Of a DNA stretch of 64,000 bases, positions 6,424 to 60,991 are shown in pieces. The notes under the pieces are model-generated. The model saw only the letters and a program-made list of their open reading frames with translations, did not search any database and was not told where the DNA came from. Position 1 is the stretch's first letter. Every line of letters starts with the position of its first letter. This DNA comes from Syntrophales bacterium (GTDB taxonomy: Bacteria; Desulfobacterota; Syntrophia; Syntrophales; UBA2210). The translations under genes were made by a program, and so were the position numbers. The stretch lies in the NCBI GenBank assembly GCA_963662405.2, contig CAXXKT010000001.1, forward strand, positions 1,280,001-1,344,000. The letters are read 5' to 3'.

Positions 6424-7770
6424 ATGGACGCAACACTCAAGAAAGTCCTCGGTGATATCAGCAGGGGGGATGTTTCCCCCTGCTATCTGATCTACGGGGA
6501 TGAAGAATTCCTGGTAGCGGACGCCGTGGGCCGGATCATCGACGTCCTCCTTCCCCCTGACCGGCGAGACCTCGGGCTCTTCCATATGGAAGGAGAAAAC
6601 GAGGAAGTGGACGCCCTCTGTGATTCTCTTCTTATGCCCCCCCTCCTCCCCGGTCGGAAGGTTCTGGTGGTGAGAGGGACACGTCTCTTTCAGTCCCGGG
6701 CGTCATCTCCCAACGTCATCGGTGAAATCAAGACACACCTTGCGGACGACCCCCGGCGGGCCGCACGGGCCTTTCTCTCCCTCATGGAGGTGGCGGGCTG
6801 GTCCGTGGGAGATCTCCGGGACGGACAGTGGAAGAGAATCACCGATGATGAGTGGCGGAGTGCGACCGGAAGCCCGGCGACGGACCGGGGAGAGTGGCTC
6901 CCCGCGGTCCTCGAGCTGTGTGAACGGCTGCAGGTATCAGGGGGCAGGGGGCAGGGGGATGTCAGCAGGTTGGAAGAAGTCTTGAGGGATGGGCTGCCTG
7001 CGGACAACTGTCTCGTCATGACCGCCGCCACCGTTGATAAACGGAAGAAGCTCTTCAAGGAGATTCAAGATATAGGAGTTGTCCTTTCCTTTGTGCAGGC
7101 CAGAAGCGAGTCTGGAAGACAGACCCTGCTTGCGGAGAGGGTAAAAGATGTCCTCGCGGAGCGGGGGAAAAAAATAACACCGGAGGCCCTCCGCGCCCTG
7201 GGAGGGAAGACGGGGTTTGTCCTTCGTGATTCGCTGCAGGAGATCGAGAAGCTGATTGCCTATGTGGGTGACCGGGAGACGGTTGACCGGGGCGATGTCG
7301 ACGCGGTTGTTGAAAAGACCGCGGAGGATTCGGTCTTCAACCTTACAAATGCCATCGTGGAACGAGATGCCGTTGCGGCGCTCCGTACTCTTGGAGATCT
7401 CCTCGACCGGGGGACCAACCATATCCTCATCCTGACGATGATTGCCCGGGAGGTGCGATTTCTCCTTCAGGGGCATATCCTCCTCGCGTCGGGGAAAATT
7501 CCTTCATTGCGCCCGCGTATGGACTATGGCGGTTTTCAGACCGGCATCTACCCGGCGGTCAAGGCCTTGGCGAGGAACAAAGGCACATGGCTCGCGAATC
7601 AGCACCCGTACGTCATCTACAACGCCCTCAGGAATGCCGGTCGGTTTTCCCGGGAAGAACTGATCGGGTATATGGAGCGTCTTGCCGATCTGGATCGTGC
7701 CATGAAGTCCTCCGGTGTCGATCCCGGACTGGCACTGAGAAATCTTCTTATCGTGATGTGCCGCCGATGA
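6424..7770 (+). CDS. holA: DNA polymerase III delta subunit
   Basis: YLIYGDEEFL N-terminus, VDKRKKLFK, EIEKLIAYVG, DLDRAMKSS C-terminus; contains an insertion. Confidence 0.85.
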   Translation: MDATLKKVLGDISRGDVSPCYLIYGDEEFLVADAVGRIIDVLLPPDRRDLGLFHMEGENEEVDALCDSLLMPPLLPGRKVLVVRGTRLFQSRASSPNVIGEIKTHLADDPRRAARAFLSLMEVAGWSVGDLRDGQWKRITDDEWRSATGSPATDRGEWLPAVLELCERLQVSGGRGQGDVSRLEEVLRDGLPADNCLVMTAATVDKRKKLFKEIQDIGVVLSFVQARSESGRQTLLAERVKDVLAERGKKITPEALRALGGKTGFVLRDSLQEIEKLIAYVGDRETVDRGDVDAVVEKTAEDSVFNLTNAIVERDAVAALRTLGDLLDRGTNHILILTMIAREVRFLLQGHILLASGKIPSLRPRMDYGGFQTGIYPAVKALARNKGTWLANQHPYVIYNALRNAGRFSREELIGYMERLADLDRAMKSSGVDPGLALRNLLIVMCRR

Positions 7771-7823
7771 ACGGGTGAGCAGTGGTCGTTACGCGTCGTG
7801 CCTCTCTGCGGGGATGCCTTGTG

Positions 7824-8345
7824 TCACAGCTTGTACAGGATCCTCCGGATCCGTCGCTCCCGCTTTGAGAGCTTCCGCGCGCTCCCCTTCTTTCTGGTCC
7901 CTGATTCCGGGTACCAATTATCGTCTTCCCCGGGGGACTCCTCGACGAGGGGTAACCATGCCGTGTCCATCCGCCCCTCGAATTCGGGTGATGGTATCGC
8001 CACCCCCCCCGCCCGCTCGGTTGCCTGTGCAACCTCCCTGTCGGAGCTGATGACCACCAGTTCTTTCCCCTTTTCCGTCCGGGCCATCCGCTTGATCACC
8101 TCATCCGCCGTCTCTCCCCTCCGTGAGTAGACAACGGTGACCCCATTTTCCCGGAGGCGTTCTTCATGCGCGCCGCCGCCAGCCCATCCGTCGAAGACCA
8201 CCGTTATGGTGTGCCCCCGTGACTTTCGATACGCGGCGAGCCGGCCTATCAGTTCAGTCCTTCCCTCCTCCAGGCTTCGCTTGTCGATACGCCGGAGGGT
8301 GTCGGATTGTCTGATCAGGTTGTAACCGTCGATAATGATATGCAC
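7824..8345 (-). CDS. NYN-domain (YacP-like) protein
   Basis: GTG start then HIIIDGYNLI, VVFDG, ETADEVI, VISSDRE acidic PIN/NYN motifs. Confidence 0.85.
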   Translation of the reverse strand: MHIIIDGYNLIRQSDTLRRIDKRSLEEGRTELIGRLAAYRKSRGHTITVVFDGWAGGGAHEERLRENGVTVVYSRRGETADEVIKRMARTEKGKELVVISSDREVAQATERAGGVAIPSPEFEGRMDTAWLPLVEESPGEDDNWYPESGTRKKGSARKLSKRERRIRRILYKL

Positions 8346-8431
8346 GGTGGTGCTTCCTTGCGCGAAAAAGGGGGCGTCCTGTCTGCCGTTCGGAACGTCC
8401 CCGAGATGGTTCCTCACCGGAAGATCGAAGA

Positions 8432-9088
8432 TCATGCCCCCAATATGGTTTTCATCTCTCTGATTGTGCGTGTGTAATCATCGCTGAGAAATATGGCGGA
8501 TCCCGCCACGAAGAGGTCGGCTCCGGCCTCACTAACAGTTGCCATGTTCCGAAGGGTGATCCCCCCGTCCACCTCGAGGAGGACACGGGGGAAGGTGCGG
8601 TCCAGCATTTCCCGTGTTCTTCGTATCTTGGGGAGCATGGTCTCGATAAACGCCTGCCCCCCGAATCCGGGGTTGACCGTCATGATGAGGAGGAGGTCGA
8701 TGTCACCGAGGACCTCTTCAACGGCGCTAAGAGGGGTTGCCGGGTTAAGTGAGACCCCTGCCCGCGCCCCCGTCTCCCTGATCAGGTGAACCGTCCGATG
8801 GAGGTGGCGCGCCGCCTCGGCATGCACGGTAATGATGTCGCTCCCCGCCTCCGCGAAGGCGGAGACATATCGATCGGGTTCTTTGATCATCAGGTGGACA
8901 TCAAGGGGAACACGAGCGATCTTTTTGATGGAGGCCACGACGGGAGGACCGATGGTGATGTTCGGGACGAAGTGTCCGTCCATGACATCGACGTGGATCA
9001 TATCCGCCCCGGCTTCCTCAACGGCCCGGATCTCATCGCCGAGTCTGCTGAAGTCGGCGGAAAGTATGGATGGTGCGATCTGTTTCAT
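8432..9088 (-). CDS. rpe: ribulose-phosphate 3-epimerase
   Basis: IAPSILSADF, HVDVMDGHFVPN, MTVNPGFGGQ, VDGG, VAGSAIF. Confidence 0.97.
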   Translation of the reverse strand: MKQIAPSILSADFSRLGDEIRAVEEAGADMIHVDVMDGHFVPNITIGPPVVASIKKIARVPLDVHLMIKEPDRYVSAFAEAGSDIITVHAEAARHLHRTVHLIRETGARAGVSLNPATPLSAVEEVLGDIDLLLIMTVNPGFGGQAFIETMLPKIRRTREMLDRTFPRVLLEVDGGITLRNMATVSEAGADLFVAGSAIFLSDDYTRTIREMKTILGA

Positions 9089-9089
9089 A

Positions 9090-9824
9090 TCAGAATTTCA
9101 TGATGAGTACGTGTATCATCCCCGTGTCAACTTCCTTCAGGGCCAGTCGAAGCTCACGTATCTGTTCTTTCACCTCGCCGGGGAAGAAAATAAAACCGTG
9201 CGATATGTCATTGGGGGGAACCGGTCGTTCTTCGAGTGACCGGTTGCGGAGGTCTTCGCCGATCCGGTGCGGTACTGCCTGATTGGCCAGTCCCGTCGCC
9301 CCCCCCATGGTGAGACCGGCGGCGGCCCCGAGGGCGGCTCCCGCCGCCGTCGATTCACCGACACTCCCGCCGGTGACGATTCCGATCGCGGCCCCGATGA
9401 CTGCACCGGCCGCACCCGCCAAGAGACCGGCCCGCGATCCTTCGGGGAGGACCTCTCCGAGATCCGTCTGCCGCGCGATCCGGTCATAGGCCAACTCCTG
9501 GTTCAGGACCGGCCAGAGGTTACTCGTAACATCCACCAGATAGGTCCGGCTCGCGATGACCTGCAGAGGGTGATTCCCTCGGTTGTCGAAAATCACCTGA
9601 ACGGGGAGTACCCCCCAGCCGACGATATCAAACCCGAAGGCGATCTCCGCCTCTTCGCGGGTGTAGCTCCGCGCCGCCACGGTCGTATTCGCCACCTCGA
9701 TCGCATTGATGTAGGCGTCCGGCATCTTGAAGGGGACCACCGTGCGTTCATACCGTGCACACCCGATTGTCGTACATAGCAGGAAAATCATGACGGCAAC
9801 CCATGCCCTGTCTTTTCGTGTCAT
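9090..9824 (-). CDS. putative lipoprotein with glycine-zipper segment
   Basis: Signal peptide with lipobox-like TIG-C; GAAGAVIGAAIG...GAALGAAAG glycine zipper. Confidence 0.7.
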   Translation of the reverse strand: MTRKDRAWVAVMIFLLCTTIGCARYERTVVPFKMPDAYINAIEVANTTVAARSYTREEAEIAFGFDIVGWGVLPVQVIFDNRGNHPLQVIASRTYLVDVTSNLWPVLNQELAYDRIARQTDLGEVLPEGSRAGLLAGAAGAVIGAAIGIVTGGSVGESTAAGAALGAAAGLTMGGATGLANQAVPHRIGEDLRNRSLEERPVPPNDISHGFIFFPGEVKEQIRELRLALKEVDTGMIHVLIMKF

Positions 9825-9940
9825 TGCCCCGGTTCCTTTTGTCTGTGATATGTTTAAGGATAATAATATCTTTTGTCATCCCTGTCAATCGGATTGTCGT
9901 GCTTGACAGGAACGGAAAAGGCCAGTATGTTTCAGCGACT

Positions 9941-11245
9941 ATGGCGAACATACTCTACAACGCCCTCCTTTCCGTGGCGGCCCTCTTTATCATCCCCTTT
10001 TTCCTGGTGAAGATTGTCTTCACGGGGAAATATCGCGCGAGCATCGGTGCAAAATTCGGCATATACCCGCCACGGATCTTTGCTCAGATGCACGGGACAC
10101 CGCGGATATGGCTCCACGCCGTATCGGTGGGGGAGGTGACCGCCGCCGCACCCATCATTTCCTCTCTGAGGGAGCGGTATCCGGGGGCCTGTCTCATCCT
10201 CTCCACGGGGACGGAGACGGGGCAGGAGATGGCCCGTCGGATCGTCACGGATGCCACCATATCGATCTATTTTCCCCTCGACATTCCCTCGGTCATCAGG
10301 AAGGTGCTCACCGCCGTGAATCCCGACATCTTTGTGGCGGTCGAGACGGAGATCTGGCCCAATTTCATCCGTGCCTGCAAGGCGCGTGGCATCCCGGTGG
10401 TGATGGTGAACGGGAGGATCTCCCCCCGTTCCTTCAAACGGTACCGCCTGACCCGATTCTTCTGGAAACGGGTGATGAACACGATCGATGCGATGGGGGT
10501 CATATCCGAACTCGATGCCTCCCGGTTGAAGGCCCTGGGGGTGGAGTCGGCGAAGATTCGTGTCAGGGGGAACGCCAAATACGACGGCCTCGCCGCACGG
10601 GCGGATGATGCCATAAAAAAGGAGATAGGAGCACGACTGGATATCGGACCCGGCACGCCGGTTTTTGTGGCGGGGAGTACGCATGAAGGGGAAGAGGCCG
10701 TCGTCATGGAGGTCTATCAGGGGCTCCGAGAGCGATACCCCGAGATGCTCATGGTCATAGTCCCGCGACATCCCGAGAGGAGTGACTCCGTTATGTCTCT
10801 TTTCCACGATGCGGGTTTTCATGACTGTGTGACCATGTCACGGATACGCGTGGGGGAGCGGCGTTGTGGGCGGCGAGTAGTGATCATTGATGTGATCGGG
10901 GAACTCTTTAAGATCTACAGCCTTGCCACGGTGGTCTTCTGCGGCGGGAGCCTCGTTCCCCGGGGGGGACAGAATATACTGGAGCCCGCCGCGTGGGGGA
11001 CGGTCGTTCTCTATGGTCCCTCGATGGAGGATTTTACCGACGAGCGGGAGCGATTGGAAATGGTGGGCGGGGGGATCACCGTCAGCGACGGTAACCGGCT
11101 CATGGACGAGATCCTCCGCCTGATGGAAGACCCGGATGCCCGCCGCAGGAGGGGGGAGGCGGGACGCACCGTCGTTGCCTCAAACAGGGGTGCCGCGCAG
11201 CGGTATGCCGATCTGATATCTGAAGTACTCGAATCGCAGGCCTGA
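9941..11245 (+). CDS. waaA: 3-deoxy-D-manno-octulosonic acid (Kdo) transferase
   Basis: WLHAVSVGE, ETEIWPN, GSTHEGEE, VPRHPER, GGSL..GGQNILEPA; start placed at ATG 9941. Confidence 0.95.
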   Translation: MANILYNALLSVAALFIIPFFLVKIVFTGKYRASIGAKFGIYPPRIFAQMHGTPRIWLHAVSVGEVTAAAPIISSLRERYPGACLILSTGTETGQEMARRIVTDATISIYFPLDIPSVIRKVLTAVNPDIFVAVETEIWPNFIRACKARGIPVVMVNGRISPRSFKRYRLTRFFWKRVMNTIDAMGVISELDASRLKALGVESAKIRVRGNAKYDGLAARADDAIKKEIGARLDIGPGTPVFVAGSTHEGEEAVVMEVYQGLRERYPEMLMVIVPRHPERSDSVMSLFHDAGFHDCVTMSRIRVGERRCGRRVVIIDVIGELFKIYSLATVVFCGGSLVPRGGQNILEPAAWGTVVLYGPSMEDFTDERERLEMVGGGITVSDGNRLMDEILRLMEDPDARRRRGEAGRTVVASNRGAAQRYADLISEVLESQA

Positions 11246-11252
11246 CGGGGCA

Positions 11253-12153
11253 CTATCCTTCCGCCCGTTTCAGACACTCCTCCCACCGGTGATTGACCGA
11301 CGCCTGGAGCGTGCCGAGCTGCTCGATGCTCATCTTCTTGAATCTGCTCTGTCGCTCCACGTAATTGACGAGGGGGAGGAGCTTCCCCCGCTCGGCCATC
11401 GTCTTGCTCCTCCCGGTGAAACGGAAGCGGCCATCCTCGATCTCGAAGAGGATAAAAAGCCCCGTCTCCACGGCGAGCTTCCCGATTCGGACCGTATCCT
11501 TTGTGGGATACCCCCACCCGGGGGGGCAGGGTGTGTCGATCTGGATGTACCGGGTTCCCCGTATCTTCTTGGCCTTGACGAACTTGTCGTACAGGTCGAC
11601 CGGGTAGGCGGGGGAGACGGTCGCCAGGTAAGGGATATGGTGCGCCTCCATGATCTTCAGGAAATCCTTCTTGGGGTCCTGCTTCGTCAGGACGGGGGTT
11701 GTCGTGGTAAGGGGCGCCCAGGGGGGTTGCGCCGGAGCGCTGCGTCCCCGTGTTCATGTAGGCCTCGTTGTCGTAGCAGGCGAAGATAAAGTCGGTGTTT
11801 CGCTCGGCCGCACCGCTCAGAGACTGGATCCCGATGTCATAGGTGCCGCCGTCTCCGGAAAGGGCCAGGACGGTGATGTCGGTCTTGTTAAGGGCCCGCA
11901 GGCCGGCCACCATCCCGGCGGCGGATGCCGCGTTCCCGGCGAAGGTGGTATTGAGGGCGGGGACGATGGTCGAGGTAGTGGGGTACAGCCCGTGCAGAAC
12001 ACAGAGGCAGCTCGGGGGGATTCCCACGATCGTGTTTTCGCGCAGTGCTTTGAGGATGTAGCGGTAGGCCAGAGAAAGACCGCACCCCTGACAGGCGCGA
12101 TTTCCCGGGAGGATGTATTCCTTCTCGTTGATCTTGAAGATGGTTTCGTGCAT
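11253..12153 (-). CDS. porB: 2-oxoacid:ferredoxin oxidoreductase beta subunit (TPP-binding), split by a +1 frameshift
   Basis: ACQGCG, GDGGTYDIG...YDNEAYMNTGTQRS; one extra base in the G run at 11711-11714; corrected frame continues GALTTTTP...KKDFLKIMEAHHIPY...PCPPGW. Confidence 0.88.
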
Positions 12154-12157
12154 TATC

Positions 12158-13366
12158 TTATCCTGTGTGGCAATTAAGCCATATCGTTTTGTTGTCCCTG
12201 TCGCCCGCTTCGACCGATGCATAGGCCGCCCGCGCCGCCCCCACCAGTTCGCGGGTCTTGACATCCCGACCCCCCAGCCCCGAGATATGGTCATGGATAG
12301 GGGCCGTGATATCCGTACCGTAGAAGGCGGCCTTCAGGTCGGACGCGATCCCCCCCTCGTACCCGTAACTGATGCACTTTTCGAAGATCGCGATGGCGCG
12401 GGCCTTGGCGAAGGCCCGCCGGACCTCTTTCTTCGGGAACGGTCGGTAGACCCTGATCCCGACGACCCCCGCCTTGATCCCCCCGGCGCGGAGCACGTCC
12501 GCGGCCAAGGTCGCCTCGGTGGCGATTGAGCCCATCCCGGTCAGGATCAGCTCGGCGTCGTCCGTGAGGTATTCCCAGAGCATCCCCCCGTGATCACGCC
12601 CCGTCAGTTTCGCCCAGTCATCGCTTGCCGCGGTGATGGTCTTCGGAGATCTCTCAAAGGCATCCTGCATCTTGTAGCGCATCTCCATATACCCGTCACA
12701 GAGGATCCCCTCCGCGTTTTCCCGGCGCGAGGCAAAGAAGACGGGATTGATCGTCACCGGCTTCTCCGGGGAGAGGGTGGTCTGCGGTACGTAGGGAGGG
12801 AGGTATGTCTTAACCGTCTCTTCCTTCGGGATATCCACCGGCATCATCGTGTGAGAGAGGACGAAGCCGTCGTAACAGACCATCACCGGGAGGTAGACCT
12901 CTTCGGCAATCCGGTACGCCTGGAGAACCGTGTCGAGGATCTCCTGGTTGTCCCGGCAGTAGATCTGTATCCACCCCGTGTCCCGTTGCGAGAAAGAGTC
13001 CTGCTGGTCGTTGAAGATGGACCAAGGAGCCCCGACGCCCCGGTTGACGCAGCACATGACGACCGGGAGGCGGGATCCCGCCGCCCAGTGCAGCTGCTCG
13101 TGCATATAAAGGAGCCCATTGGAACTGGTCGCCGTGAAGACACGGGCCCCTACCGTGGATGCCGAGATGCAGACGGTCAGAGAGGAGTGCTCCGACTCCA
13201 CCCGGACATATTCCGCCTTCAGTTCCCCCTTCTCGACGTATTCGGACAGGACCTCGGCCAGTTTGGTTTGTGGTGTGATGGGGTAGGCCGCGATGACGCC
13301 GGGCCGGGCCAATTTTACCGCCAGGGCCGCCGCCTCGTTCCCCATGATGATGCGGACGTCACTCAT
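12158..13366 (-). CDS. porA: 2-oxoacid:ferredoxin oxidoreductase alpha subunit
   Basis: GNEAAA, AYPITPQT, ESEHS, TATSSNGL, DGFVLSH, GLGGRD. Confidence 0.93.
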   Translation of the reverse strand: MSDVRIIMGNEAAALAVKLARPGVIAAYPITPQTKLAEVLSEYVEKGELKAEYVRVESEHSSLTVCISASTVGARVFTATSSNGLLYMHEQLHWAAGSRLPVVMCCVNRGVGAPWSIFNDQQDSFSQRDTGWIQIYCRDNQEILDTVLQAYRIAEEVYLPVMVCYDGFVLSHTMMPVDIPKEETVKTYLPPYVPQTTLSPEKPVTINPVFFASRRENAEGILCDGYMEMRYKMQDAFERSPKTITAASDDWAKLTGRDHGGMLWEYLTDDAELILTGMGSIATEATLAADVLRAGGIKAGVVGIRVYRPFPKKEVRRAFAKARAIAIFEKCISYGYEGGIASDLKAAFYGTDITAPIHDHISGLGGRDVKTRELVGAARAAYASVEAGDRDNKTIWLNCHTG

Positions 13367-13652
13367 CGATATCCACCTCCCGTACCATCTGTATCGCGTT
13401 GGGGGGGCATTCCTCCGCGCAGATCCCGCATCCCTTGCAGTAGTCCATGTCGATGACCACCGGAATCGTCATGGTGACCACCCCTTCCGGGCAGTAGAGC
13501 CAGCAGAGAAAACAGGCCGCTTTTCCCTTGATCTCGGGGATACATTTGGTCGGATCGATCACGGGACGCAGGTCCCGCCACTCTCCCGTTCTCCCCGCTT
13601 CGCCGGGGGCCGGCGTGCAGACCCCCGATATGTTGGTGTCAATCTTTTCCAT
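13359..13652 (-). CDS. porD: 2-oxoacid:ferredoxin oxidoreductase delta subunit (2x[4Fe-4S])
   Basis: TGEWR, CFLCWLYCPE, YCKGCGICAEECP. Confidence 0.92.
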   Translation of the reverse strand: MEKIDTNISGVCTPAPGEAGRTGEWRDLRPVIDPTKCIPEIKGKAACFLCWLYCPEGVVTMTIPVVIDMDYCKGCGICAEECPPNAIQMVREVDIDE

Positions 13653-14220
13653 TACCCTCCCAGACCTCGGTTCTGTCAAAGGCCGTTTTGATGGCCTGAA
13701 AATTAAAGGCCGCTTTATTTCGCGGCATCTTTTGCTTGATCCCCTCTTCGATGCTATCGAGGGAAACCAGCCCCGATGCCCGGCAGAAGGCCCCGAGGAG
13801 CGGCGTGTTCACGATCGGGGTCCCGCCCATGCTGAGGTGATGTTCCCACGCAATCCGCGCTGCATCGACCGTCGCAACGGAGAAGCACTCCCGGACCCCG
13901 AGCTGTTCCGGATTCAGGGGGGTGTTGATGATAACGATTCCGTTTTTCCTGAGCAGCTCCTCACCGGTCGCCGCCGCAAGGAGGGACGGGTCCAGAACGA
14001 CGGCGATGTCGGCCGGTGCGACCTGTGAGAAGGTCCTGACCGGCTCGTCCGCAATTCGTGTCGAAGCGGTCAGGGGCGCACCCCTGCGCTCCGGGCCGAA
14101 GGTGGGAGCAGAGGTGACACCCCGGAAGCCATGAATATAGGCCGCCTCGGCCAGTATCTGGGCCGCCAGGACCACGCCTTGGCCACCCCTTCCGTGCCAT
14201 AGTATCTCGTGCATTGCCAT
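13639..14220 (-). CDS. porC: 2-oxoacid:ferredoxin oxidoreductase gamma subunit
   Basis: HGRGGQG, FGPERRGAP, NTPLLGAF. Confidence 0.93.
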   Translation of the reverse strand: MAMHEILWHGRGGQGVVLAAQILAEAAYIHGFRGVTSAPTFGPERRGAPLTASTRIADEPVRTFSQVAPADIAVVLDPSLLAAATGEELLRKNGIVIINTPLNPEQLGVRECFSVATVDAARIAWEHHLSMGGTPIVNTPLLGAFCRASGLVSLDSIEEGIKQKMPRNKAAFNFQAIKTAFDRTEVWEGNGKD

Positions 14221-14233
14221 TGGATTTCCTCAC

Positions 14234-14268
14234 AAAAAAGGCCATGAAGCATTCGCCCATGGCCTTTT
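14234..14268 (-). terminator. attenuator terminator upstream of the oxidoreductase operon
   Basis: Minus strand AAAAGGCCATG-GGCGAATGCTT-CATGGCCTTTTTT, ending 13 nt before the porC ATG. Confidence 0.85.
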
Positions 14269-14288
14269 GAACTCTCTCTGCTGTTGCG

Positions 14289-14393
14289 TTACACTCCAGT
14301 GACGACAGGCCGCGGGCGGATTATGAGCCCGCTAAGGACGAGGCCGAGCAAGAACAGTAGATTCAGCAGCACTGCGTACAACCACCCTGTCAT
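14289..14393 (-). CDS. leader peptide (34 aa) of a putative Leu/Val/Ile attenuator: MTGWLYAVLLNLLFLLGLVLSGLIIRPRPVVTGV
   Basis: AAGGA SD, ATG at 14393, TAA at 14289-14291; 10 Leu, 5 Val, 2 Ile; followed by antiterminator and terminator. Confidence 0.8.
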   Translation of the reverse strand: MTGWLYAVLLNLLFLLGLVLSGLIIRPRPVVTGV

Positions 14394-14504
14394 CGGAGAT
14401 ATTCCTTTCAAGAAGTGCTACCCCTCCTACACCGGGTGCGTCGAAAAGTCAACGGAAAATGTACGGGTTCCGCTGTCGCATGGAAAATACCGGGCGGGGA
14501 AGGG

Positions 14505-16142
14505 TCATTCGGTAGCCAGATGCCGCATCTCCGCCTCCAGCTTTGCGAGGAGGGGAGGGAAGGTGCGGGGGTTGAGCGCCGACAGCGGAATAGCATCGAA
14601 GCGACGGCAGACGTTATCCAGGATTGCCTCACCGTCGGAGAAGAGATCGATCTTGTTGAAGACGCGCAGATACCGTTTCCCCTGCAGATCAAGTTCCTCG
14701 AGGATCCGGTCCACGGCGTGGATCTGTTGCTCAAAAGAGGGGTTGCTCACATCGATGACGTGGAGGAGGAGATCGGCTTCCTCCAGTTCCTCCAGGGTTG
14801 CGCGGAAGGCGGCGGCAAGCTCTTTCGGGAGATTCCGGATGAATCCCACCGTGTCCGTGATGATCGCCTCCCGATCCCGGGGAAAGCGGAGTCGCGAACT
14901 CTTCGGGTCGAGGGTGGCGAAGAGGAGATCCTCGGTCAGAACACGGCTCTGGGTCAGGGCGTTGAGGAGGGTCGACTTTCCCGTATTGGTATAGCCGACA
15001 ATGGAGATGACGGGGAGCCCCTGTTTGCGCCTGAGTCGACGTCGCTGACCCCTCCCCTTCCGGACATTTTTCAGTTCTTTCTTGAGACGTCCGATTCGTT
15101 CACGGACCCGACGACGGTTGATCTCAAGCTTTGTCTCCCCCGGTCCGGTTCCCCCGATTCCCCCGGTGAGACGGGACATGGCCGTGTTTTTGGTTGCGAG
15201 GCGCGGGAGGAGGTATTGAAGCTGGGCGAGTTCGACCTGGATCTTTCCCTCACGGCTGTGGGCGCGGCGGGCGAAGATATCCAGTATCAACTGGGAGCGG
15301 TCGATCACCTTCAGATCGGTAAAATCGGTGATGGAACGGATCTGGGCGGGGGAGAGCTCGTGGTCGAAGATCAAAAGTCCTGCCCCGATCTGGAGCGCCC
15401 GTATGACGACGTCGGAGAGCCTTCCCCTCCCCATCAGGTACCGGGGGTCGTAGTCATGCCGGTGCTGAACGACGGTGTCGAGAACCTCCACGCCGGATGA
15501 ACGTGCCAGTTCGCGCAGTTCTCCCAGTGAAGCCTTGCTATCGAACAGGGGATCAACGGCAACCCGTATCAGGATGGCCCCTTCGCTCGTACCCACCTTC
15601 CGCGTCCGTCCGCTCCGTGCGAACTCTTCCTCCAGGGCCTGGATGAATTCACTGAAATTCAGATCCACCGTGAAGACGGGGGTCGGGTCCATCAGGAGCC
15701 AGTAAGTACCCCCGGGATTTTCGGGGATGAGATGCGCCGAGTGAATCCTGCCGGGGAGTCCGTCCTGGTCGACCTCGATTGCCGAGACCATATCGAGTCG
15801 CAGGAGGGCAAGATCGGTGAGGTCGTCCTCGGTCAATTCCTCACCGCCGAGGTGGGTGTGGATGAGGCGCAGCCCCTTGAGGCGTGTTGAGGCTGACCGA
15901 ATTCCATCGAGAGCGGGGATAACGATCTGCCGGTGGTCACCGATGATGACCCGTGCGATCTCTCCCCGGCGGCTGACCAGGATGCCGATCTGTCGGTTCA
16001 CCCGGCGAGACAGCGCCGCGATCTCCCGTGCCATCTCGGTCGTCACGATCCTTTCGGGGGGCACCCTTCTGCGATAGAGACGCTGTATGTCCTTCATGTC
16101 CGATGGCTTGATGCCGTCGGTGTTTCCCTGGATTTTTTCTAT
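14505..16142 (-). CDS. hflX: GTPase HflX (long form)
   Basis: LIHTH N-terminal domain, LILDIFARRA, GPGETKLE, GYTNTGKST, FATLD, DTVGFI, NKID; start placed at ATA 16142 (see findings), alternative ATG 16244. Confidence 0.93.
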   Translation of the reverse strand: MEKIQGNTDGIKPSDMKDIQRLYRRRVPPERIVTTEMAREIAALSRRVNRQIGILVSRRGEIARVIIGDHRQIVIPALDGIRSASTRLKGLRLIHTHLGGEELTEDDLTDLALLRLDMVSAIEVDQDGLPGRIHSAHLIPENPGGTYWLLMDPTPVFTVDLNFSEFIQALEEEFARSGRTRKVGTSEGAILIRVAVDPLFDSKASLGELRELARSSGVEVLDTVVQHRHDYDPRYLMGRGRLSDVVIRALQIGAGLLIFDHELSPAQIRSITDFTDLKVIDRSQLILDIFARRAHSREGKIQVELAQLQYLLPRLATKNTAMSRLTGGIGGTGPGETKLEINRRRVRERIGRLKKELKNVRKGRGQRRRLRRKQGLPVISIVGYTNTGKSTLLNALTQSRVLTEDLLFATLDPKSSRLRFPRDREAIITDTVGFIRNLPKELAAAFRATLEELEEADLLLHVIDVSNPSFEQQIHAVDRILEELDLQGKRYLRVFNKIDLFSDGEAILDNVCRRFDAIPLSALNPRTFPPLLAKLEAEMRHLATE

Positions 16143-16275: not shown

Positions 16276-17571
16276 TTAGAAGCTCAAAGTCAACTTGTGC
16301 ATGACGAGGTAATCGCTGGCGACTTCTGCGGTTTTGTTAGGGCCTTTGTACCAGTCGCCGGGCCAGAAGTGACCGAAGCCGACCACGTATTCGAGATTGT
16401 CGAAGAGCCGGTATGTCGCGGTGATATCGAGTTCTTCCCCGATATCACGATCGACGGCATTCCCCTGTTCATCGACCCTGGCGTATGTCAGGGACACGAA
16501 GAGGTCGAGCCTCGGCATCGGTGTGATCCCGGCGTAGATCTGATACAACCAGGCGTTGGCCATCGTATCGCCGGTGGTATTGCCGCCGAGGCCCTCACCG
16601 AGGTCATGGCCGGACCATTTTACCAGTTCATCGTTCCAGAGGATCAGGCAGGGGCTGTAGTCCGAACCGGTAAAACCGCCTTCATGCCGGTCGTCTGTGT
16701 TGGGATCGTCTCCCTGGACAAAGGCGATCTGGCCGCCGATATACGCGTTCCCCCTGGTGTACTTCGCGTTGATGTAGGCGGACCAGGAGTCGAGATCGAT
16801 ATCCTCGGCAAGGGGGAAGAGATCCTTGATCCACTGGTCCAACTCCATATAGTTTCCAAAGGAGTAGATCGCCTCCGCTTCGACAGAGAGATTGCCGGCC
16901 CGATACTTGACGTAGGGGAGGAAAGAACAGAGGGACGTGTCGAAGATGGGCTTCATGTCGGCGTAGTCGAAATACCAGACGAGAAGACCGGCCTCTCCCC
17001 CCGCGAAGGGTTTGACGACGTACAGCTGGTATTCGTCCATATCGAGGTCCGTATAGGCTGTTCCCCGGTCACCCTCGTAGTACTTCGCGATGCTGGCGCC
17101 GACGATCCATCCCCTGATCTCGTTTTGCCAGGCGATGAGGGCACCGTCGTATTCTTCATCGCCGAAGGCCGTTCCCCAGAGCCCGTCCTGCTGATAGCCG
17201 ATCCGGAATCGTCCGTACTTCGTGGATGCATCGAGATAGGCACGATCGAAATCGATATTGTCATCGTCCCTTCCCGTATCATATTCACGGGGTCCCCCGG
17301 GGGTGTCCCAGTATCCCTCCAGGGCGTCGAAACGGGTGATCAGTTTGAGGGACGGGCTGATAGTAAATTCCGTCCGGACCCGGAGGCGGGTGTTGTACCA
17401 CGCGCTGGAGGAGCCGTTTGCACCGGCCTCCTCTTTCATCAGGTCACCGTTGTCATCGTACCAGCCTGCGACATAGAAACTGCCGCTGACGCTCAGGTCT
17501 GTCGCCATGGCAGAGGGGGCGAGTGCCGCCATCAGACTCAGTACGACAAATACCCCCAGATATTTTTTCAT
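16276..17571 (-). CDS. outer-membrane porin-like protein (paralog 2)
   Basis: Signal peptide MKKYLG...AMA, aromatic amphipathic beta strands, C-terminal LTLSF. Confidence 0.75.
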   Translation of the reverse strand: MKKYLGVFVVLSLMAALAPSAMATDLSVSGSFYVAGWYDDNGDLMKEEAGANGSSSAWYNTRLRVRTEFTISPSLKLITRFDALEGYWDTPGGPREYDTGRDDDNIDFDRAYLDASTKYGRFRIGYQQDGLWGTAFGDEEYDGALIAWQNEIRGWIVGASIAKYYEGDRGTAYTDLDMDEYQLYVVKPFAGGEAGLLVWYFDYADMKPIFDTSLCSFLPYVKYRAGNLSVEAEAIYSFGNYMELDQWIKDLFPLAEDIDLDSWSAYINAKYTRGNAYIGGQIAFVQGDDPNTDDRHEGGFTGSDYSPCLILWNDELVKWSGHDLGEGLGGNTTGDTMANAWLYQIYAGITPMPRLDLFVSLTYARVDEQGNAVDRDIGEELDITATYRLFDNLEYVVGFGHFWPGDWYKGPNKTAEVASDYLVMHKLTLSF

Positions 17572-17621
17572 TATCTCTTCCTCCTGTCGTATCGGTGGTT
17601 GCAAACTGTCCGTGCCTCGTT

Positions 17622-17703: not shown

Positions 17704-18975
17704 CTAGAAGCTCAGCGTCAGCTTGTGCATCACGACGTAGTCGTTCTCGACCTCGTCGGCCTTGGTGGCCTTGTAGTAATCACCGGCCATGAAGTACCCG
17801 AAGCCGACCATGTACTCGAGGTTGTCGAAGACCTTGTAGGTCGCCGTGATATCGATCTCGGAACCGATCTCGTCGTCTTGCAGCCCCCGGTCCTCATCCG
17901 CCGTGGCGTAGGTGTAGGAGGCGAAGAGATCGAGCCCCTTCATGGGGGCAAATCCTGCATAGATCTGATACAGCCAGGCATTGGCCATCGTATCGCCCGT
18001 GGTGGGACCATGGCCGAGATTCTGCCCCGACCACTTCACCTGATCGTCGTTCCAGAGGATCAGGCAGGGGTTGTAGTCGGAACCCGACAGACCCGTTTCG
18101 TCCTCGTCTTTGGTGTTGGGATCGTCACCCTGCACCCAGGCGATCTGACCGCCCACATAGGCATTCCCGAGGAAGAACTTGGCGTTGACGTACGCGGAAA
18201 GAGCTTTTCTGTCGACATCATCCATGGCAATGCCGTCATCCCATTCCCGGCTTGTTCCCCAGACGTAATCCAACTCCGCCTCGACGTAGACGTTTCCGAA
18301 CTTCGCCTTCACGTAGGGCTCGAGGAGATAGCAGTTATAGTCAAAGCCCGCGGTCTTCCAGCCGGCATAGTCGAGATAGACGAAGAGGAGACCCGCCATG
18401 CCGCCCTTGAAGGGTTTCACGACGTACAGCATGGGCTTGTCATTGTCGGCATCGGTCAGGTCGGTTCCCTGATCGTTTTCCGCGGCCTTCTCGAGGATGG
18501 CACCGAGGATCCAGCCGCCGATCATCTTCGACCACTGCATACGGGGGACATCGTCTTCGGTATCGCAGAAGACCGTACCCCAAGCACCACCGGACTTGTG
18601 GCCGATCTGGAAGGTACCGTACTTGGAGTTGAACACCATGTAGGCACGGTCGAAGTCGATGTTGTCGTCATCCCTGCCCGCGGCATATTCCGCCGGTCCA
18701 CCCGGGCTGTTCCAGTAGCCTTCCAGGGCGTCGAAACGGGTGATCAGCTGGATGGCCGGATTGACCTGGAATACGGTCTGGACACGGAGGCGGGTGTTGT
18801 ACCACGCGCTCGAAGAACCTTGCGCACCGGCCTCTTCTTCCAGGAGATCGCCATTGTCATCATAATAACCCGCAACATAGAAACTACCGCTGACACTCAC
18901 GTCCGTCGCAACGGCGGGCATGGCAAATGCCAATACCAAACTCAGTGCGAGCAGTCCAAGAAACAACTTCTTCAT
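17704..18975 (-). CDS. outer-membrane porin-like protein (paralog 1)
   Basis: Signal peptide MKKLFLG...AVA, strong SD, beta-strand pattern, C-terminal LTLSF; homologous along its length to the next gene. Confidence 0.75.
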   Translation of the reverse strand: MKKLFLGLLALSLVLAFAMPAVATDVSVSGSFYVAGYYDDNGDLLEEEAGAQGSSSAWYNTRLRVQTVFQVNPAIQLITRFDALEGYWNSPGGPAEYAAGRDDDNIDFDRAYMVFNSKYGTFQIGHKSGGAWGTVFCDTEDDVPRMQWSKMIGGWILGAILEKAAENDQGTDLTDADNDKPMLYVVKPFKGGMAGLLFVYLDYAGWKTAGFDYNCYLLEPYVKAKFGNVYVEAELDYVWGTSREWDDGIAMDDVDRKALSAYVNAKFFLGNAYVGGQIAWVQGDDPNTKDEDETGLSGSDYNPCLILWNDDQVKWSGQNLGHGPTTGDTMANAWLYQIYAGFAPMKGLDLFASYTYATADEDRGLQDDEIGSEIDITATYKVFDNLEYMVGFGYFMAGDYYKATKADEVENDYVVMHKLTLSF

Positions 18976-55501: not shown

Positions 55502-55577
55502 TGGTGGAGATGAGGGGGATCGAACCCCTGACCTCGGCATTGCGAACGCCGCGCTCTCCCAGCTGAGCTACATCCCC
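55502..55577 (-). tRNA. tRNA-Ala(CGC)
   Basis: GGGGATGTAGCTCAGCTGGGAGAGCGCGGCGTTCGCAATGCCGAGGTCAGGGGTTCGATCCCCCTCATCTCCACCA; G3:U70 pair. Confidence 0.96.
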
Positions 55578-58407: not shown

Positions 58408-58488
58408 GTGAGTCGTCTGTTTGGATTAACGGTAGTCCTTTTGAACGTACTTGTACTCGTCGTAGTACTTACGGGGACCGCCGCTTGA
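58408..58488 (+). CDS. ilvB leader peptide (26 aa): MSRLFGLTVVLLNVLVLVVVLTGTAA
   Basis: GAGGAG SD 9 nt before GTG; 7 Leu and 7 Val codons; followed by antiterminator and terminator. Confidence 0.85.
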   Translation: MSRLFGLTVVLLNVLVLVVVLTGTAA

Positions 58489-58513
58489 TCCGGATGAATT
58501 AAAAGAAAAAATC

Positions 58514-58546
58514 AAGCCGCGGGCCCCAAACCCCGCGGCTTTTTTT
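58514..58546 (+). terminator. ilv attenuator terminator 1
   Basis: AAGCCGCGGG-CCCCAAAC-CCCGCGGCTT followed by T run. Confidence 0.85.
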
Positions 58547-58549
58547 GCG

Positions 58550-58589
58550 AAAAAGCCGCATCTCGAAAAAAGAGCCTGCGGCTTTTTTT
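58550..58589 (+). terminator. second tandem terminator-like hairpin in the ilv leader
   Basis: AAAAAGCCGCA...TGCGGCTTTTTTT. Confidence 0.7.
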
Positions 58590-58658: not shown

Positions 58659-60335
58659 ATGGAAACGATAGGTGCTGATATACTGATAAAGACATTACAG
58701 AACGAAGGCGTGGATACGATCTTCGGTTATCCGGGGGCGAATAGCCTGCCGATCCACGACAGGCTGCTGAAGAGCTCGATACGTCACTATCTGGTGCGGC
58801 ACGAGCAGGCGGCCGCTCATGCCGCCGACGGCTACGCGCGGGCGACCGGGAAGGTGGGCGTCTGCCTCGCCACGTCGGGACCGGGGGCCACCAACCTGGT
58901 AACCGGTATCGCGACGGCATATATGGATTCGACCCCCCTCGTCGTCTTGACCGGGCAGGTGACGACCAATCTCCTGGGGAGCGACGCCTTCCAGGAGACG
59001 GACATTGTGGGGATTACGATGCCGATCACGAAGCACAGCTACCTGGTCAGTGACCCGTGCGATATCGCCTCCACGGTGAAGGAGGCCTTTGAGATCGCCC
59101 GGACCGGGAGGCCGGGGCCGGTTCTGGTTGATCTTCCCCGGGACGTGATGGCAGCTTCCTGTGAGTACAGTGAACCAAAGGAATCCCCATCCCGGATAAA
59201 ACCCACTCCCCAGGGGGAACAGGTCAGCGAACCGCTTCGGAAGATCGCCGCCTCCCTGAACCGGGCCGAGCGACCGGTCCTCCTGATCGGCGGCGGTGTA
59301 AAACTCGCCCAGGCCTGTGACAATCTGGCCGGACTCATCGAGAAGGGGAGCCTTCCCTTTGTGTCGACGATGATGGGGATTGGTTCGGTGACCGCCGCGA
59401 ACGGGTACAACCTGGGATTCATCGGGACCCACGGGAACGAACTGGCCAACCGTATCGTGCATGATTCAGACTTTATCCTGACGATCGGGGCCCGCTTCAG
59501 CGACCGCAGCACGTCAATCGTCTCGGAGTTCGCCCCGCTCGCAACGATCGCGCAGATCGATATCGATGCATCCTCCATCGGGAAGGTTATCAAGGCGGAT
59601 CTGTCCCTGGTCTGTGATATCCGTGAGGCCTTGGAAGAACTGCTCCCCCTCGTAGAGGAAAAGGAGCGCACGGAATGGCTGGAGCGGATCAAACGGGAAC
59701 GAGAGGCCCGGAATCAGACCGAGGCGATGGACGAATGCGGAGCGGTGGGACCGTTTATACGGGATGTCCAGGCGGCGATGCCGGAAAAGGCCACCGCGAT
59801 CACGGATGTGGGGCTGAACCAGATATGGGCACTGCGGTCATGGAAGGCGAGGGCACCCCGGAGCGTGATCACGCCGGGCGGGTTGGGGACTATGGGTTTC
59901 AGCCTCCCCGCGGCTATGGGCGTTCAGGTGGGGGTACCGGATCATGCCGTGGTCGTCTTTTCCGGGGACGGTGGTTTCTTCATGAACATACAGGAACTTG
60001 TCACGGTCACGTGCTACCAGATCCCGCTCAAGATCGTGGTCTTCAACAACGGGAACCTCGGTATGATCCGCCAGATACAGGATCTCTTCTATGGGGCCCG
60101 TTTCTGCGATATCGAACTGGGGACCAGCACGGTCGATCTGGTCGCCATTGCCCGAGGATTCGGGATCGAGGCGGACCGGGTTCCGGTCGGTGATGCCGCA
60201 GCCGGGATCGAGAAGATGGCCGTCTCCACGGGTCCGTTCCTGTTGGAGGTCATGGTCGATCCCGACAACTATGTCTACCCGATTATCCCTCCGGGAAAAT
60301 CGAATATCGACATGATCAGCGGACGGCAGGGATGA
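58659..60335 (+). CDS. ilvB: acetolactate synthase large subunit
   Basis: FGYPG, RHEQAAAHAADGYAR, TSGPGATN, FQE, GTMG, GDG...NN TPP motif. Confidence 0.95.
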   Translation: METIGADILIKTLQNEGVDTIFGYPGANSLPIHDRLLKSSIRHYLVRHEQAAAHAADGYARATGKVGVCLATSGPGATNLVTGIATAYMDSTPLVVLTGQVTTNLLGSDAFQETDIVGITMPITKHSYLVSDPCDIASTVKEAFEIARTGRPGPVLVDLPRDVMAASCEYSEPKESPSRIKPTPQGEQVSEPLRKIAASLNRAERPVLLIGGGVKLAQACDNLAGLIEKGSLPFVSTMMGIGSVTAANGYNLGFIGTHGNELANRIVHDSDFILTIGARFSDRSTSIVSEFAPLATIAQIDIDASSIGKVIKADLSLVCDIREALEELLPLVEEKERTEWLERIKREREARNQTEAMDECGAVGPFIRDVQAAMPEKATAITDVGLNQIWALRSWKARAPRSVITPGGLGTMGFSLPAAMGVQVGVPDHAVVVFSGDGGFFMNIQELVTVTCYQIPLKIVVFNNGNLGMIRQIQDLFYGARFCDIELGTSTVDLVAIARGFGIEADRVPVGDAAAGIEKMAVSTGPFLLEVMVDPDNYVYPIIPPGKSNIDMISGRQG

Positions 60336-60384
60336 GATGCCGGAGCAGAACCGACGATACACGTAATGAAAGGGTAAATACATC

Positions 60385-60873
60385 ATGGGGATACAGGAAC
60401 GGATCATTGAGATATTGGTGAACAACAAACCGGGCGTCTTGGCCCGCGTTGCCGGCGTCTTCGGGCGGCTCGGCTATAATATCGAGAGCCTCTGCGTGGC
60501 GGAGACGATCTCCCCCGAGATCTCGCGGATCACATCGATCACCAACGCGGATTCCGACTTTATAGATAAGGTGAAGAAACAGTTGACACGGCTGGTGGAT
60601 GTGATCGAAGTGACGGAATTGGTTTCCGGACATTCCGCCCAGAGGGAAATGGTCTTGGTCGGGATCAAGATGACTCAAAAAAACCGGCAGGAGGTAGCGC
60701 AGGCCGTTGGCATGTTTGACTGCAAGATCATCTCCATGCGAGATAACTATTGCATCATCCAGGTTGCCGGGAGCCGGGAAGAGGTGGAGACGATCATTAA
60801 TTTCCTGCGGCCCCTCGGTGTCGACAAAATCGGGCGAACGGGGGTTCTTGCCCTCCAGCAGACAAAAAAATAG
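60385..60873 (+). CDS. ilvN: acetolactate synthase small regulatory subunit
   Basis: ACT domain [34 protein letters not shown]. Confidence 0.93.
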
Positions 60874-60991
60874 GCGCGCTTTTAGGATTTGGCGGTCTTG
60901 CTCAGGTTATAGGTTGCCTGTTGATGGTAAAGTGTGGTATCAGGGCAGATTCATAAAATTCAGGATCTATACCACACGCAGGAGACCGATA

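Follow-up and report, generated by a model that had tools for sequence, protein, structure and literature searches.

We describe here a leucine-coded leader in front of a four-subunit 2-oxoacid:ferredoxin oxidoreductase operon in the genome of a Syntrophales bacterium (GenBank assembly GCA_963662405.2). The stretch analysed, hereafter the window, comprises the 64,000 nucleotides at positions 1,280,001 to 1,344,000 of contig CAXXKT010000001.1, and positions are counted from its first letter. The leader is very probably a real transcription attenuator that reads leucine, and the enzyme encoded behind it probably serves leucine supply. The reaction we favour for it, to which we give about an even chance, is the carboxylation of isovaleryl-CoA with reduced ferredoxin to 2-oxoisocaproate, which would make it a leucine-regulated anabolic enzyme with isovaleryl-CoA as its candidate substrate. 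By default, annotation treats genes of the type that encodes pyruvate (POR) or branched-chain 2-oxoacid (VOR) oxidoreductases as genes for catabolic pyruvate oxidoreductases; a conserved leucine sensor would indicate, at the level of sequence, that the role is anabolic and specific to leucine.

Searches against Pfam and NCBIfam identified all four subunits of a gamma-delta-alpha-beta operon of the POR/VOR type at 11253-14220, as a preliminary description of this DNA had proposed, and the same gene order was found in 28 loci of relatives. The delta subunit contains the motif CKGCGICAEECP, and the beta subunit contains the thiamine pyrophosphate (TPP) motif GDGG (LSGDGGTYDIG), with its frame broken by one base in the assembly. 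The preliminary description had also placed a Leu/Val/Ile attenuator before the operon. The attenuator itself holds, at 14393-14234 and hence just outside the range given for it, but the even mix of three amino acids does not, as the leader is dominated by leucine (12/5/2 codons). The region contains a short open reading frame (ORF) with a start codon, a Shine-Dalgarno-like site (AAAGGA, 9 nt 5' of the ORF) and clustered codons for a single amino acid, followed by a terminator between leader and first gene and a mutually exclusive antiterminator over the end of the leader (Table 1). The terminator was missed by our terminator scan, which was limited to loops of 8, because its loop is larger. 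No full match at the leader was returned by a scan for the sigma-70 consensus; a TTGAC(T) box is similarly placed in the upstream regions of several relatives.

The two antiterminator strands pair at 11/12 positions, and the duplex has a predicted energy of -23.7 kcal/mol against a mean of -15.2 for shuffled sequences (z -3.1). On the classical attenuation model, scarcity of Leu-tRNA would stall the ribosome in the leucine run (14369-14325), where it would cover arm 1 of hairpin 1:2; the strand at 14318-14307 would then be free to pair with that at 14265-14254, the terminator would be blocked and the operon transcribed. When leucine is plentiful, translation would continue to the stop codon, placing the ribosome over or beside the antiterminator strand, and the terminator would form 13 nt before gamma. 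The geometry of leader, antiterminator and terminator is what the biosynthetic logic put forward in the preliminary description would predict, with starvation leading to read-through, and a switch that opens on starvation would rule out a catabolic role toward leucine.

Table 1. Positions of the attenuator, the oxidoreductase genes and the second branched-chain leader in the window.
Feature	Position	Strand	Remarks
Putative -35 hexamer TTGACT of leader promoter	14447-14452	minus	Predicted from sequence
Leader ORF, ATG, 34 codons + stop, MTGWLYAVLLNLLFLLGLVLSGLIIRPRPVVTGV	14393-14289	minus	12 Leu, 5 Val, 2 Ile codons
Regulatory Leu-codon run, codons 9-23	14369-14325	minus	Predicted stalling zone, per classical attenuation model
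Hairpin 1:2, GCGGGC / 9-nt loop / GCCCGC	14332-14312	minus	Predicted anti-antiterminator; also in centroid fold
Antiterminator 5' strand CGCCCGCGGCCT	14318-14307	minus	Within leader codons 26-29
Antiterminator 3' strand AGGCCATGGGCG	14265-14254	minus	Terminator 5' arm and part of its loop
Intrinsic terminator, GGCCATG-loop-CATGGCC then TTTTTT	14264-14234	minus	Ends 13 nt before gamma start
Gamma subunit, 193 aa	14220-13639	minus	PF01558, 127 bits; TIGR02175 PorC_KorC, 167 bits
Delta subunit, ferredoxin-like	13679-13359, likely ATG 13652	minus	4Fe-4S (Fer4) domains; TIGR02179 PorD_KorD, 87 bits
Alpha subunit, 402 aa	13366-12158	minus	POR_N, 229 bits, and PFOR_II
Beta subunit, TPP-binding, two frames in assembly	12153-11253	minus	TPP_enzyme_C; PRK11864/PRK11865
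Extra base in C-run breaking beta frame	~11711	minus	One surplus C in assembly
Val/Leu leader VSRLFGLTVVLLNVLVLVVVLTGTAA and twin terminators before ilvB1-ilvN	58408-58588 (leader 58408-58488)	plus	Sequence read

Conservation of the leader was assessed on orthologous operons from 29 related genomes and from 80 named records of metagenome-assembled genomes (MAGs; Syntrophales, Syntrophaceae, Syntrophus and Smithella), in which loci with more than 250 nt of upstream DNA were filtered for a Leu-type leader with a GCC-rich terminator. Leader and terminator were present in 85 of the 102 Syntrophales loci that passed the length limit, and these encode 76 distinct peptides. Leucine accounts for 654 of 2517 leader residues (26%), against 7% for valine and 3% for isoleucine, which argues that the sensor reads leucine; per-leader medians are 9 for Leu, 2 for Val and 1 for Ile, and the leucine-only sensor is kept across at least 17 families. 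RNAalifold on the 76 leaders returned the terminator as consensus structure (11 pairs, 6 with compensatory changes). The antiterminator duplex, calculated for the final 16 codons of the leader against the 5' half of the terminator, had a median of -23.8 kcal/mol versus -14.5 for shuffled sequences, with z <= -2 in 67/76 leaders and z <= -3 in 48/76. It occupies the final ~9 leader codons, 28 to 2 nt ahead of the stop codon, and occurs in two variants, one in the genus-level clade of the window and one in the majority; for the stem of the majority variant that is equivalent to hairpin 1:2, compensatory changes were seen by eye in the alignment. Conservation is limited to the leucine run and to the bases pairing with the terminator, and the N-terminal parts of the leaders vary. 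In most loci the terminator ends 7-72 nt ahead of gamma. Among the 57 loci whose upstream DNA extends to 1500 nt or more, just 17 have an hflX gene upstream, which indicates that the leader element travels with the oxidoreductase.

Leader attenuators were then sought across the whole genome in a relaxed scan, stricter criteria having missed the leaders of cimA and ilvB2. This yielded nine convincing leader attenuators, three of them before 2-oxoacid:ferredoxin oxidoreductases, and the only Leu-rich leader was the one before the window operon. The ilvBN attenuator that the preliminary description had noted in the same window is real: it precedes the second acetohydroxyacid synthase, with ilvB at 58659-60335 (558 aa), ilvN (162 aa) and then ileS, in a block at 58659-63781. 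The main ilvB2-N-C-D operon (contig C1, ~2177242) has an Ile/Val-rich leader and the cimA-leuACD operon an Ile/Leu/Thr-rich one. Before the gene for a nifJ-type pyruvate:ferredoxin oxidoreductase (PFOR) there is a promoter-like site, a Val/Ala-rich leader MIGPFGKAVAVSLKRVYVLAVVLMGSAA and twin terminators (C1:2550765-2550401, minus strand); leader and twin terminators are identical at 108/136 nt to the ilvB1N attenuator, and among relatives genome G003 has a Val-rich version of the leader and G001 has the twin terminators. A PaaK-like CoA ligase and the alpha subunit of an indolepyruvate oxidoreductase (IOR; C1:2013132-2014830, plus strand) are preceded by two Trp leaders (…YWWWQ… and …NWWWC…), both followed by a terminator. 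The IOR leader, MKPVNNLSTNWWWCEITGRGLFAV, has WWW or WWWW in 10/11 orthologous loci. A third Trp leader (…FFWWWR…) precedes a 453-aa TrpB-like gene (C1:784476, plus strand), and a Phe-rich leader (MFELLGNFFSFFGFFGEV…) precedes a 414-aa protein with a signal-peptide-like start (C1:2712783, plus strand). The two-route, translation-sensed regulon suggested earlier is thus present, but with nine leader attenuators it is larger than two routes. As read from these leaders, three classes of ferredoxin oxidoreductase appear to be under the kind of control typical of biosynthetic genes, with a different amino acid for each class.

Why 2-oxoisocaproate is proposed as the product follows from the sensor, because it reads leucine alone and 2-oxoisocaproate is the sole 2-oxoacid used only for leucine. 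2-Oxoisovalerate feeds valine, leucine and pantothenate, and pyruvate feeds many products. The enzymes that accept 2-oxoisocaproate are those of the VOR class. Taking IOR and tryptophan as the model, we propose reductive carboxylation of isovaleryl-CoA: isovaleryl-CoA, CO2 and reduced ferredoxin would give 2-oxoisocaproate, which a transaminase would convert to leucine. The isovaleryl-CoA would come from imported isovalerate; no HMG-CoA lyase was found in the genome of the window. According to the preliminary description the enzyme would be anabolic, either salvaging branched short-chain fatty acids or supplying pyruvate or 2-oxobutyrate to IlvBN, rather than a catabolic POR. We keep the anabolic role, as the switch would open on starvation, but the leucine-specific sensor argues against supply of 2-oxobutyrate. 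Supply of pyruvate to IlvBN is weakened as well, since the PFOR, with its copy of the Val-type attenuator of ilvBN, fits that task better here.

The genome (3.8 Mb in 3 contigs) contains 10 loci with a POR_N domain, namely the nifJ-type PFOR (1172 aa), three four-subunit enzymes (the window operon and two paralogues, P1 and P4), three IORs, and one enzyme each of the PRK08659, OAFO and VorB types. Paralogue P4 scores 429 bits with the POR profile versus 325 with that of VOR, and its loop after the conserved NR (NRALSGPINIW) is close to that of the solved POR 9bt4 (NRAVSAPINIW); from its sequence, P4 looks like a true POR. The alpha subunit of the window has NRGVGAPW(S/T)IF at this position, a loop found with only slight variation in 103 of the 110 loci scanned. 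It also carries an 11-residue insertion (the FFASRRENAEG region, residues ~213-223, window positions 12700-12735) relative to P1, P4 and the solved alpha subunits of POR and oxalate oxidoreductase. With 10 POR_N loci, a POR-like P4 and a differing loop, the window enzyme is neither the sole nor the housekeeping POR, and the former possibility, against which the preliminary description had measured its reading, was set aside by the genome check.

With TIGR00973 at E <= 1e-100, leuA was not found in 11 of 41 related genomes, and 9 of these 11 keep the oxidoreductase operon. Ten of the 11 were scanned with the HMGL domain, and none yielded a LeuA-type protein: the highest score was 165 bits versus 309 for LeuA of the window genome, and only CimA-like and HMG-CoA lyase-like proteins were recovered. 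In G018 and G027 (97% and 100% complete), cimA, leuC, leuD and leuB lie on one contig with no room for leuA, where the window genome has cimA-leuA-leuC-leuD-leuB; these leuA-free operons lie within C1:3501-11500 and C71:18001-25700, respectively, and the rest of either genome yielded no LeuA-type gene. No leuC orthologue was found in G006, G016, G029 (10 contigs) and G005 either. HMG-CoA lyase, a marker of isovaleryl-CoA metabolism, was present in 8/11 genomes without leuA versus 8/30 with it (Fisher p 0.012, related genomes not being independent); leuA-less genomes handle isovaleryl-CoA. G029, in which no orthologue of leuA, cimA or leuC was found, has a liu-like cluster (C1:131001-149000, ~7674-13056, minus strand) encoding a carboxyltransferase (557 aa), an enoyl-CoA hydratase (266 aa), an HMG-CoA lyase (309 aa) and an HMGL-like protein (396 aa) that belongs to no NCBIfam family. 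A wider reading, which we regard as quite unlikely, is that the oxidoreductase would be the only route to leucine in lineages that have lost leuA and, in some cases, all of the isopropylmalate pathway; together with liu-like genes running in reverse (carboxyltransferase, enoyl-CoA hydratase and HMG-CoA lyase), it would form a de novo, LeuA-independent pathway from acetyl-CoA through HMG-CoA and isovaleryl-CoA to 2-oxoisocaproate, and Syntrophales would wire PFOR, the window enzyme and IOR as amino-acid synthases under leaders that read their products.

The broken frame of beta was followed up in read contigs and in relatives. The N-terminal half of the subunit covers positions 6-147 and the C-terminal half positions 149-296 of the same 300-position beta profile. 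Both halves are in a single frame in 28/28 loci of relatives that hold both, one further locus being cut by the end of its contig. Only two read contigs cross 11711, and both are one base shorter there. Run X2 of the same sample supplied the first (depth 2.3), and run X3, a marine sediment metagenome of 2016 from a different study, the second (depth 4.12). In run X1 contigs end at 11640 and restart at 11712, and none spans 11711. The halves are 92-99% identical to those of relatives in the same genus, and there are no further lesions. The extra base is probably an assembly error or an indel private to the strain. Since the crossing contigs are free of it and all 28 relatives are in frame, beta is unlikely to be an ancient or true pseudogene, the condition under which the preliminary description would have given up its reading. 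A dead operon, with the frameshift real and fixed in the strain and the enzyme not made, is a very improbable explanation. In its favour, the extra base stands in the assembly, the counter-evidence consists of two contigs with depths of 2.3 and 4.1, and contigs of X1, from the same sample, break at the site; against it are the one base fewer in both spanning contigs, one of them from an independent study, and the high identity of the two halves to those of the genus. Because read depth is low, we keep this small residual probability. A programmed +1 frameshift was also considered and rejected, as it is absent from relatives, the base is missing in the reads and no zero-frame stop follows. At 11726-11846 and 13405-13520 the depth of read contigs rises sharply (to 78.6 in X1) and loose ends are numerous; a single X1 contig links 11778 with 13483. 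The spike contigs probably derive from other organisms or from paralogous genes, as the two stretches are the conserved TPP-motif and ferredoxin-motif regions.

Several observations weigh against carboxylation of isovaleryl-CoA as the function of the enzyme. The POR and VOR profiles tie for the alpha subunit (361 bits, and 357 bits with PRK08366, cut-off 646), and its top profile is that of the archaeal pyruvate synthase PorA (PorA_Arch, NF040682; 426 bits, cut-off 550). The closest solved chain is a PFOR alpha, 9bt4_B (E 1e-90, ~50% identity by eye), which aligns across residues 6-372, with oxalate oxidoreductase as the next solved match. The two beta halves match the VOR-type beta PRK11864 best (173 + 162 bits, summed 335, cut-off 405), and PorB (NF008819) with 171 + 145 bits (cut-off 405); no subunit score reached the curated equivalog cut-offs for PorA/PorB or for VOR alpha/beta. 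A protein homologue search gave close orthologues: none of the best 120 of 7963 matches fell below 69% identity, and their names were automatic ones, 'pyruvate ferredoxin oxidoreductase' being an example. Two residues that we take to bind the carboxylate in PFOR, T in YPITPQT and R in NR, are present in the window alpha, and the Ile that presumably touches the methyl group of pyruvate in the D. africanus PFOR seems conserved (WSIF), on a mapping that we likewise assume. A nifJ-type PFOR is rare, occurring in just 4/25 relatives. In G026 the window-type enzyme is the only four-subunit enzyme of the POR/VOR type found (E <= 1e-60) and the Leu leader was not seen, a case which hints that the window-type enzyme can serve as a general POR. 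The enzyme could be a pyruvate synthase (acetyl-CoA + CO2 to pyruvate) made in larger amounts under leucine shortage: each leucine takes two pyruvates and one acetyl-CoA, and acetyl-CoA units are what the organism lives on. We consider this rather unlikely: a leucine-only sensor in at least 17 families would be odd for a product that also serves alanine, valine, isoleucine and gluconeogenesis, the PFOR of the same genome has a Val-type attenuator of its own, POR-like P4-type matches occur in 32/41 related genomes by our own reading of the search output, and the substrate loop is unlike those of P4 and the solved POR.

A broad branched-chain 2-oxoacid synthase acting, like archaeal VOR, mainly on isobutyryl-CoA would yield 2-oxoisovalerate for LeuA and for valine. 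The VOR alpha profile scoring as high as that of POR agrees with this, as do the 5 Val and 2 Ile codons in the leader of the window, and so does the distribution of ilvC. With TIGR00465 at E <= 1e-40, ilvC was not found in 8/41 genomes (G008, G009, G011, G013, G016, G017, G023 and G035), 7 of which carry the operon, and this keeps the 2-oxoisovalerate reading alive; the set includes G013 (100% complete) and both genomes of genus g2, which have leuA and leuB. As ilvBNCD forms a single operon, absence of ilvC may reflect a missing contig: either ilvBNCD is often unbinned or 2-oxoisovalerate is obtained another way. Medians of 2 Val and 1 Ile versus 9 Leu in leaders across the order speak against this product, which would moreover be of no help to genomes without leuA, and we hold it to be unlikely. 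Other difficulties touch the carboxylation of isovaleryl-CoA more directly. The genome check proposed in the preliminary description found all of the classical branched-chain genes, cimA (TIGR00977, 721 bits), leuA, leuC, leuD, leuB, ilvC, ilvD and two ilvBN, so the pathway is complete and a carboxylation route would be auxiliary in this genome. The genome-wide scan revealed neither a CoA ligase nor a transporter behind a Leu leader, in contrast to the Trp module. Nor is the operon enriched in leuA-less genomes (9/11 versus 22/30, p 0.70), and G012 and G032 are without both leuA and the operon, so leuA-less genomes may simply import leucine; MAG incompleteness limits all such counts of absent genes. 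Finally, there may be no regulatory link at all, the small ORF being a small membrane protein or a chance ORF, the hairpin ending the hflX transcript and the oxidoreductase being an ordinary catabolic POR or VOR. The leader peptide is hydrophobic enough for a transmembrane helix, and the whole 266-nt leader folds no better than shuffled sequences (z -0.03), only the specific alternative helices standing out. A covariance search with Rfam gave nothing at gathering score in the window, Leu_leader (RF00512) included, and only two chance-level hits (E 0.13-0.29) in 14150-14560. Yet leader and terminator persist where hflX is not upstream, conservation is confined to the leucine run and the terminator-pairing nucleotides, the antiterminator outdoes shuffled sequences in most leaders, and the terminator sits close before gamma in most loci; the arrangement exceeds what chance would give, and we regard the absence of a regulatory link as very improbable.

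Among known systems, the enterobacterial leu, ilvBN and ilvGMEDA leaders share with the window leader a short ORF in which codons for the regulating amino acid follow one another, a terminator before the first gene and an antiterminator that is freed by stalling. Here a ferredoxin-dependent 2-oxoacid oxidoreductase is controlled instead of leuABCD, no sequence relation is apparent (Rfam models, including Leu_leader, are unmatched), and two antiterminator variants occur within Syntrophales. The four-subunit archaeal-type PFOR (9bt4; PorA_Arch, PorB) has the same gamma-delta-alpha-beta make-up; the window enzyme differs from it in a score below cut-off (426 < 550), in its loop (GVGAPWSIF versus AVSAPINIW), in the 11-residue insertion near residue 213 and in being leucine-regulated. 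The VOR of hyperthermophilic archaea and methanogens (PRK08366, PRK11864) belongs to the same subunit family and provides the best beta profile, with scores far below the cut-offs.

Labelling of anaerobes showed decades ago that branched short-chain acids can undergo reductive carboxylation to amino acids, and the responsible genes are rarely named. According to rumen work cited in PMC7356843, leucine can be formed by direct carboxylation of isovalerate and subsequent amination. The physiology proposed there is the same as ours, but that work is physiological, whereas we propose a specific operon with a leucine sensor for it, in syntrophic Deltaproteobacteria-like bacteria. For Geobacter, a predicted 'tryptophan (iorAB-paaK)' regulatory element appears in a table row of PMC2700814, and it is the sole precedent found in the literature searched. 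This element and the Trp-IOR module of the present genome likewise place an amino-acid-sensing leader before a 2-oxoacid:ferredoxin oxidoreductase, which would imply anabolic use; they differ in that they concern tryptophan and a two-subunit IOR and include the CoA ligase, whereas the Leu operon is without a ligase or transporter of its own. The literature search, outside which most subscription journals lay, turned up neither a description of an attenuator before a POR/VOR-type enzyme nor a paper on leucine synthesis in Syntrophus, and a term search of PMC545781 (Rodionov 2004) gave no text on branched-chain attenuators. If leucine-regulated synthesis of 2-oxoisocaproate is correct, metabolic models of syntrophs would change, as the apparent leucine auxotrophy of leuA-less MAGs may be false. 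The reading makes a testable prediction for cultured Syntrophus, a MAG labelled as Syntrophus aciditrophicus having an alpha subunit of 72% identity, and it would offer a rule for other genomes, in which the codons of a leader reveal the product of the enzyme behind it. Taken with Trp-IOR and Val-PFOR, it suggests a scheme in which ferredoxin drives the fixation of CO2 into amino acids and translation controls it.

In the window itself, the upstream neighbour of the operon is a gene for an hflX-like GTPase, and its 3' side abuts a convergent waaA-like gene (9803-11245). Tandem genes at 16276-17604 and 17704-18975 (minus strand) gave weak N-terminal matches to the Desulfovibrio-type outer-membrane porin family NF033939 (49 and 57 bits, cut-off 250). 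A complete rRNA operon with 16S, two tRNAs, 23S and 5S lies at 20623-25781, and a further tRNA at 55505-55577.

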